A DNA stretch of 64,000 nucleotides from NCBI RefSeq assembly GCF_054482595.1, contig NZ_CM137008.1; one strand, written 5' to 3'. The position numbers and the translations under genes are program-made. The number at the start of each line of letters is the position of its first letter. Within the stretch, counting starts at the first letter, position 1. The notes beneath the pieces were generated by a model, which saw only the letters and a list, made by a program, of their open reading frames with translations, was not told where the DNA came from and did no database searches. Positions 21,813 to 21,850 of this stretch are shown here, piece after piece.

Positions 21813-21850
21813 AACTGTCGATACGTACAGTATAGGATTTTTATACAGTG
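21813..21850 (-). promoter_or_regulatory. tandem LexA (SOS) boxes upstream of ydjM
   Basis: reverse strand reads cactgtataaaaatcctatactgtacgtatcgacagttta; contains CTGT-N8-ACAG box and adjacent box, matching the known dual SOS boxes of ydjM. Confidence 0.8.

Follow-up and report, generated by a model that had tools for sequence, protein, structure and literature searches.

In gammaproteobacteria, the LexA box has a CTGT-N8-ACAG core within the consensus TACTG(TA)5CAGTA. Promoters with two closely spaced LexA sites include those of the lexA gene, with its tandem SOS boxes, and of the colicin operons, in which a strong and a weak site overlap at their ends and repression is cooperative; this cooperativity was demonstrated for the colicin genes and was not attributed to ydjM (PMC4951493). 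At Escherichia coli ydjM, tandem LexA-binding sites have been reported from experiment (Fernandez De Henestrosa 2000), according to the passages of PMC4951493 and PMC6590174 that cite that work; cooperative binding of LexA at ydjM itself is not documented in the literature accessible to us. Expression studies establish that ydjM depends on LexA and is induced in the SOS response. A 2024 RNA-seq study treated it as a classic SOS gene, with a heterology index (HI) of 9.0, 2.5-fold induction by AZT, and an 8.6-fold dependence on lexA/LexA cleavage (PMC11228462), and in a 2024 time course its transcript rose to about log2 2.6 (PMC11002266). It is co-expressed with recA, lexA, sulA, umuD, and others in a 2015 study that also predicted the distal of its two boxes again as an extra site (PMC4576408). 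In Salmonella, the ydjM start codon is preceded by two SOS boxes at distances of 14 and 32 nt, with HI values of 9.12 and 12.85 (PMC8072944), and in Staphylococcus aureus a gene with a YdjM domain is under LexA control (PMC11442139).

The window analyzed here, the whole 64-kb stretch of E. coli DNA, holds this known tandem LexA operator of ydjM at 21813-21850, a range that consists of exactly two 20-mer boxes (38 bp). The minus strand from 21811 to 21850 reads cactgtataaaaatcctatactgtacgtatcgacagttta (40 nt), as quoted in the preliminary description, and contains both the canonical box and the adjacent degenerate box described there. Box 1, the proximal and strong one (21813..21832, minus strand, TACTGTACGTATCGACAGTT), has a perfect CTGT-ACGTATCG-ACAG core and thus the complete 16-bp palindrome. 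Box 2, distal and degenerate (21831..21850, minus strand, CACTGTATAAAAATCCTATA), has an intact CTGT left half-site but CCTA in place of ACAG; its right half is CCTATA versus the expected (A/C)CAGTA, and the palindromic core is lacking. The two boxes overlap by 2 nt, are 18 bp apart from center to center, and lie 14 nt (box 1) and 32 nt (box 2) upstream of the ydjM ATG.

The regulated gene (21208..21798, minus strand, ATG at 21798) encodes a 196-aa inner-membrane protein of the YdjM/PF04307 family. The open reading frame matches Pfam YdjM (E=7e-36), and RefSeq names it ydjM in both O157:H7 and K-12 strains of E. coli; the boxes confirm this annotation. A Shine-Dalgarno-like GTGAG, read from the sequence at 21806..21810 (minus strand), lies 7 nt upstream of the ATG, and orthologues have GxG or GGG at this position. 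Farther upstream, a terminator scan placed the intrinsic terminator of the preceding gene hxpB (yniC) at 21928..21959 (minus strand), with a T-rich tail after a 14-bp stem in which 9 of the pairs are GC. Because this strong terminator insulates ydjM from read-through, the gene requires a promoter of its own.

Comparison with the closest described operators leaves little that is unusual. The LexA operators of K-12 ydjM (b1728) are the same locus in another strain of the species: the sequence is identical to that of the window across both boxes, so that the operators do not differ, and the published HI of box 1 is about 9. The ydjM region of the window as a whole is identical to those of O157:H7 and K-12, although an accessory insertion elsewhere in the window, described below, shows that it derives from neither of the two. 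Salmonella enterica ydjM (STM14_1605) has the same 18-bp offset and the same pairing of a strong with a weak site, and its box 1 has a better spacer (TACTGTATGAATTGACAGTT), scoring 19.6 bits versus, depending on the matrix, 14.7-15.2 bits in E. coli. Like the lexA and colicin promoters, ydjM has two closely spaced LexA sites; unlike them, its weak site has no second half-site, and the half in question coincides with a putative -10 element. The site is already described, real, strongly conserved, and ordinary. Its boxes tell nothing new about SOS regulation, and the preliminary description was right both in matching the boxes to the known dual LexA sites of ydjM and in calling the finding not novel. 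Modest additions are the probable double use of the right half of box 2 as -10 region and a conserved 13-mer upstream.

The scan with a LexA position weight matrix that the preliminary description had proposed ranked both boxes near the top of the window. The matrix derives from the 18 boxes printed in a tiling-array paper (PMC3009722), among which ydjM is absent; for the scan it was symmetrised and built from 17 boxes, cho being omitted because cho itself lies inside the window, and all 128,000 positions of the 64-kb window were scored. The known LexA target cho ranked first as a positive control (8713-8732, 19.7 bits), followed by ydjM box 1 (21813-21832, 15.2 bits), an isolated site (47570-47589, 12.7 bits), and ydjM box 2 (21831-21850, 12.4 bits). 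Box 1 falls within the range of the reference sites (13.7-28.6 bits), and box 2 falls just under the weakest of them (13.7 bits). Exact per-position probabilities were 1.9e-6 for box 1 and 7.8e-6 for box 2, and a score at the level of box 2 is expected by chance about 0.3-1 times per window. A tandem arrangement, defined as a strong site accompanied by a further site at a distance of 14-25 bp, occurred in none of 200 simulated first-order Markov windows; that box 2 adjoins box 1 is not due to chance. Our own 18-site matrix gives box 1 a heterology index of 10.2 and box 2 one of 9.75, values that are not numerically comparable with published HI, as this is not the published Lewis matrix.

Conservation was examined with one genome per species in 80 Enterobacteriaceae loci from about 35 genera. 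In all 80, the best and second-best matrix matches within 160 nt upstream of ydjM corresponded to boxes 1 and 2, with an offset of exactly 18 bp each time. Both boxes were also present in all three Erwiniaceae, at 18 bp in two (Erwinia amylovora and Paramixta) and at 17 bp in Pantoea. Across the 80 species, box 1 lies 13 to 23 nt from the ATG, the upstream gene changes among genera, and conservation is lost farther than about 95 nt upstream of the start codon. Within box 1, CTG and ACAG were invariant and the central spacer was variable, with T or G at position 6, both of which are found among known boxes; such a pattern is as expected for a sequence that serves as a LexA site. Box 2 was constrained differently in its two halves. 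The left half ACTGTA was nearly invariant, with CTG kept in 79 of the 80 species, and the right half CCTATA was invariant in every one, so that motif positions 17-18 were T-A throughout, versus A-G in 18 of 18 reference boxes. Exceptions on the left side were Citrobacter amalonaticus, which has lost the CTG (AGATGG) and retained CCTATA, and Pantoea and one Enterobacteriaceae species, which have TACTGG.

Within E. coli, 5422 of 5426 complete genomes contain the 75-nt block from GTTACA to box 1, which is identical in 3586 of them, and the sampled single-nucleotide differences in it fell at low-information motif positions. One strain of the 5422, E. coli NIPH17_0036, has a 7-bp deletion (AAATCCT) within box 2, aligned to window positions 21833-21839, which brings the CTGT half-site nearer to box 1 and changes the bases immediately preceding the putative -10.

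The invariance of a half-site that does not resemble LexA's consensus is most likely explained by promoter function: CCTATA would be part of a -10 element, TATACT, that spans the junction of the boxes (21829..21834, minus strand, with C at -13). The junction sequence CCTATACTG, which contains TATACT, was invariant in 83 of 83 orthologous promoters, and TATACT agrees with TATAAT at 5 of 6 positions. A candidate -35 hexamer, TTCCGT (21852..21857, minus strand), lies 17 nt upstream; it agrees with the consensus at only 2 of 6 positions, and its CTTyCG is kept in Enterobacteriaceae and unconserved in Erwiniaceae, so that its assignment is an inference. With a simple sigma70 model that uses hexamer frequencies from classic compilations, TTCCG(C/T)-17-TATACT outscored every other sigma70-type candidate in 72 of the 84 orthologous sequences upstream of ydjM. 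In absolute terms it scored about as well as the best match in random 160-mers, for which reason the promoter is expected to be weak. A consensus promoter scan of 21700-22000 returned no sigma70-like promoter, and a search for the ydjM start site in the supplements of published transcription start site and RNA-seq papers yielded nothing usable. With the -10 at 21829-21834, transcription would start near 21822; box 1 would then span about -10 to +10 and box 2 about -28 to -9, both boxes would cover this best candidate -10, and the degenerate half of box 2 would be frozen because it is promoter DNA. Most plausibly, then, this half has been held fixed in evolution by its second role as a -10 element, which would explain why the weak box never improves toward the LexA consensus.

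We are highly confident that this 38-bp stretch is the SOS operator of ydjM, at which LexA on both boxes would mask the promoter until it is cleaved during the SOS response. In undamaged cells, one LexA dimer would sit on the full palindrome of box 1 and a second on the half-consensus of box 2, probably aided by its neighbor, and the two together would cover about 38 bp, including the most likely -10 TATACT and the predicted start. With LexA over -10 and start, RNA polymerase would be unable to form an open complex. Upon DNA damage, RecA-stimulated self-cleavage of LexA would free the weak promoter and ydjM would be transcribed. That the offset is 18 bp in each of the 80 Enterobacteriaceae is compatible with contact between the dimers and is no proof of cooperative binding. 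Conservation of box 2, in turn, could stem from promoter function rather than from LexA, because the A-G of its right half-site is missing in all species.

That last point opens an alternative which we regard as unlikely, namely that box 1 alone is the functional LexA operator and that box 2 is conserved mainly as promoter DNA, either as the -10 region CCTATACT plus spacer or as a different -10, TACTGT, whose partner would be the GTTACA 17 nt upstream. Box 2 would in that case resemble a LexA box only because -10 elements and SOS boxes are alike in their TACTGT/TATA-rich composition. Consistent with this, CCTATA is invariant yet never LexA-like at positions 17-18, box 2 scores below the weakest reference box (12.4 versus 13.7 bits), and C. 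amalonaticus dispenses with the CTG of box 2 and keeps CCTATA. RegPrecise, moreover, apparently holds box 1 alone, judging from the description of box 2 as a "novel" prediction in PMC4576408, and in 55 of 84 sequences GTTACA and TACTGT, 17 nt apart, have the geometry of a valid -35/-10 pair. Against it, the ACTGTA kept in 79 of 80 species would lie at -27 to -22 if TATACT is the -10, in a spacer that is not normally constrained, and the TACTGG of Pantoea and one Enterobacteriaceae species remains permissible as a LexA half-site but lacks the final T on which a TACTGT -10 critically depends. In addition, a review states that the tandem binding of LexA at ydjM was shown experimentally (PMC4951493). 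Even if the promoter is GTTACA-17-TACTGT, its -10 and start would lie under the boxes.

Upstream of the LexA operator lies a further conserved element, the 13-mer GTTACACCGTCAC (21861..21873, minus strand), which lies 10 nt upstream of box 2. As GTTACAnCGTCAC it is conserved to near 100% across the 80 Enterobacteriaceae, and in Erwinia, Pantoea, and Paramixta it is kept as GTTACAGCGTCAC at a distance of 10-11 nt from box 2. Its GTTACA is separated from the TACTG of that box by 17-18 nt, and at 13 nt the conserved stretch exceeds the length of a -35 hexamer. An Rfam scan of 21600-22100 gave no match, and comparison by eye with consensus sequences found no fit to CRP, the pho box, the CpxR repeat, sigmaE, sigma32, or sigma54; a CRP site in particular was rejected for the wrong spacing of TGTGA-N7-TTACA. 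The control region of ydjM might extend beyond the LexA operator, with the 13-mer bound by a second, as yet undescribed regulator that conveys, for instance, envelope stress, and with box 2 as a composite of a -10 in its right half and a lone LexA half-site in its left; we offer this tentatively and consider it rather doubtful. Up-regulation of ydjM together with Cpx genes on TisB expression has been reported, and no direct evidence was found in the literature linking ydjM to RpoS, to Cpx, or to cooperativity. The 13-mer is deeply conserved and would be a cheap target for reporter mutations at the gene of a still uncharacterised SOS membrane protein.

Other copies of this block and its surroundings were also noted. 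Just upstream of GTTACA, most Enterobacteriaceae have T or G followed by TGACAAAGAG, which includes a -35-like TTGACA/GTGACA; in the corresponding region of the window (21874-21890), as in K-12 and O157, TTAAGAGAAAGAG replaces it, indicating that this sub-element has been lost in much of E. coli. An 11-mer, GTTACACCGTC, is common to the upstream regions of ydjM and cho in reverse complement: the cho-sense strand at 8770-8789 reads GACGGTGTAACCTTTGTCA, the reverse complement of the ydjM upstream block (TGACAAAG-GTTACACCGTC), with the exact 11-mer in common. The cho copy is missing from six other genera (Citrobacter, Salmonella, Leclercia, Kosakonia, Yokenella, and Enterobacter) and is thus probably a coincidence or specific to E. 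coli; a second regulatory element common to the two genes was rejected on this ground. Two further near-matches to the 13-mer in the window lie inside ydiY and pheS and were dismissed.

It is also quite improbable that the ydjM promoter lies upstream of both boxes, for example as CTGAAT-17-ATTAAT at about 21893-21922, with LexA acting as a roadblock in the 5' leader instead of masking the -10. Genomic SELEX located binding of the sigma70 holoenzyme in the yniC-ydjM spacer, and CTGAAA-17-ATTAAT was proposed for K-12 (PMC3946193); the proposed hexamers are found in the K-12 sequence, but their assignment is a pattern match within a low-resolution SELEX peak. The ATTAAT region, unlike the 75 nt from GTTACA to box 1, is unconserved outside E. 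coli, and the pair fell short of what the promoter scan required. Finally, the reading of both LexA-like sequences as chance matches without a regulatory role has next to no probability and is refuted by conservation and expression data: a box-2-level score is indeed expected about 0.3-1 time per 64-kb window, and a comparable isolated site occurs at 47570, but box 1 has p=1.9e-6, no simulated window of 200 had the tandem layout, both boxes are kept in 83 species despite differing upstream genes, and LexA-dependent expression of ydjM has been published (PMC11228462, PMC11002266).

The window thus holds two bona fide SOS promoters, those of cho and ydjM, which make a useful positive control for motif scans. 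The LexA box of cho (ydjQ), CACTGGATAGATAACCAGCA (8713-8732, minus strand), is the top matrix match and lies 13 nt upstream of the GTG start at 8699. Like ydjM, cho is LexA regulated and follows the same design, with a conserved -10-like hexamer, TAyACT, inside which its LexA box begins; unlike ydjM, it has one box, and no 13-mer is conserved upstream of it. Two elements of the cho promoter are conserved in seven genera, GCCTCTTTTTTAA and CTGyTAyACTG, the latter with the -10-like hexamer fused to the box.

The isolated LexA-like site at 47570-47589 (plus strand, TACTGTCTTCAACCACAGCA) has a perfect CTGT-N8-ACAG core; about 0.4-0.9 sites of its score (12.7 bits) are expected by chance per window. 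It is intergenic, 173 nt upstream of a gene annotated as "anion permease." The surrounding region, about 47300-51400, is a four-gene accessory insertion between ppsA and fadK that encodes the anion permease, a 2-hydroxyacid dehydrogenase, a YhcH/YjgK/YiaL-family protein, and an SDR oxidoreductase, and it was present in 114 of 5426 complete E. coli genomes.
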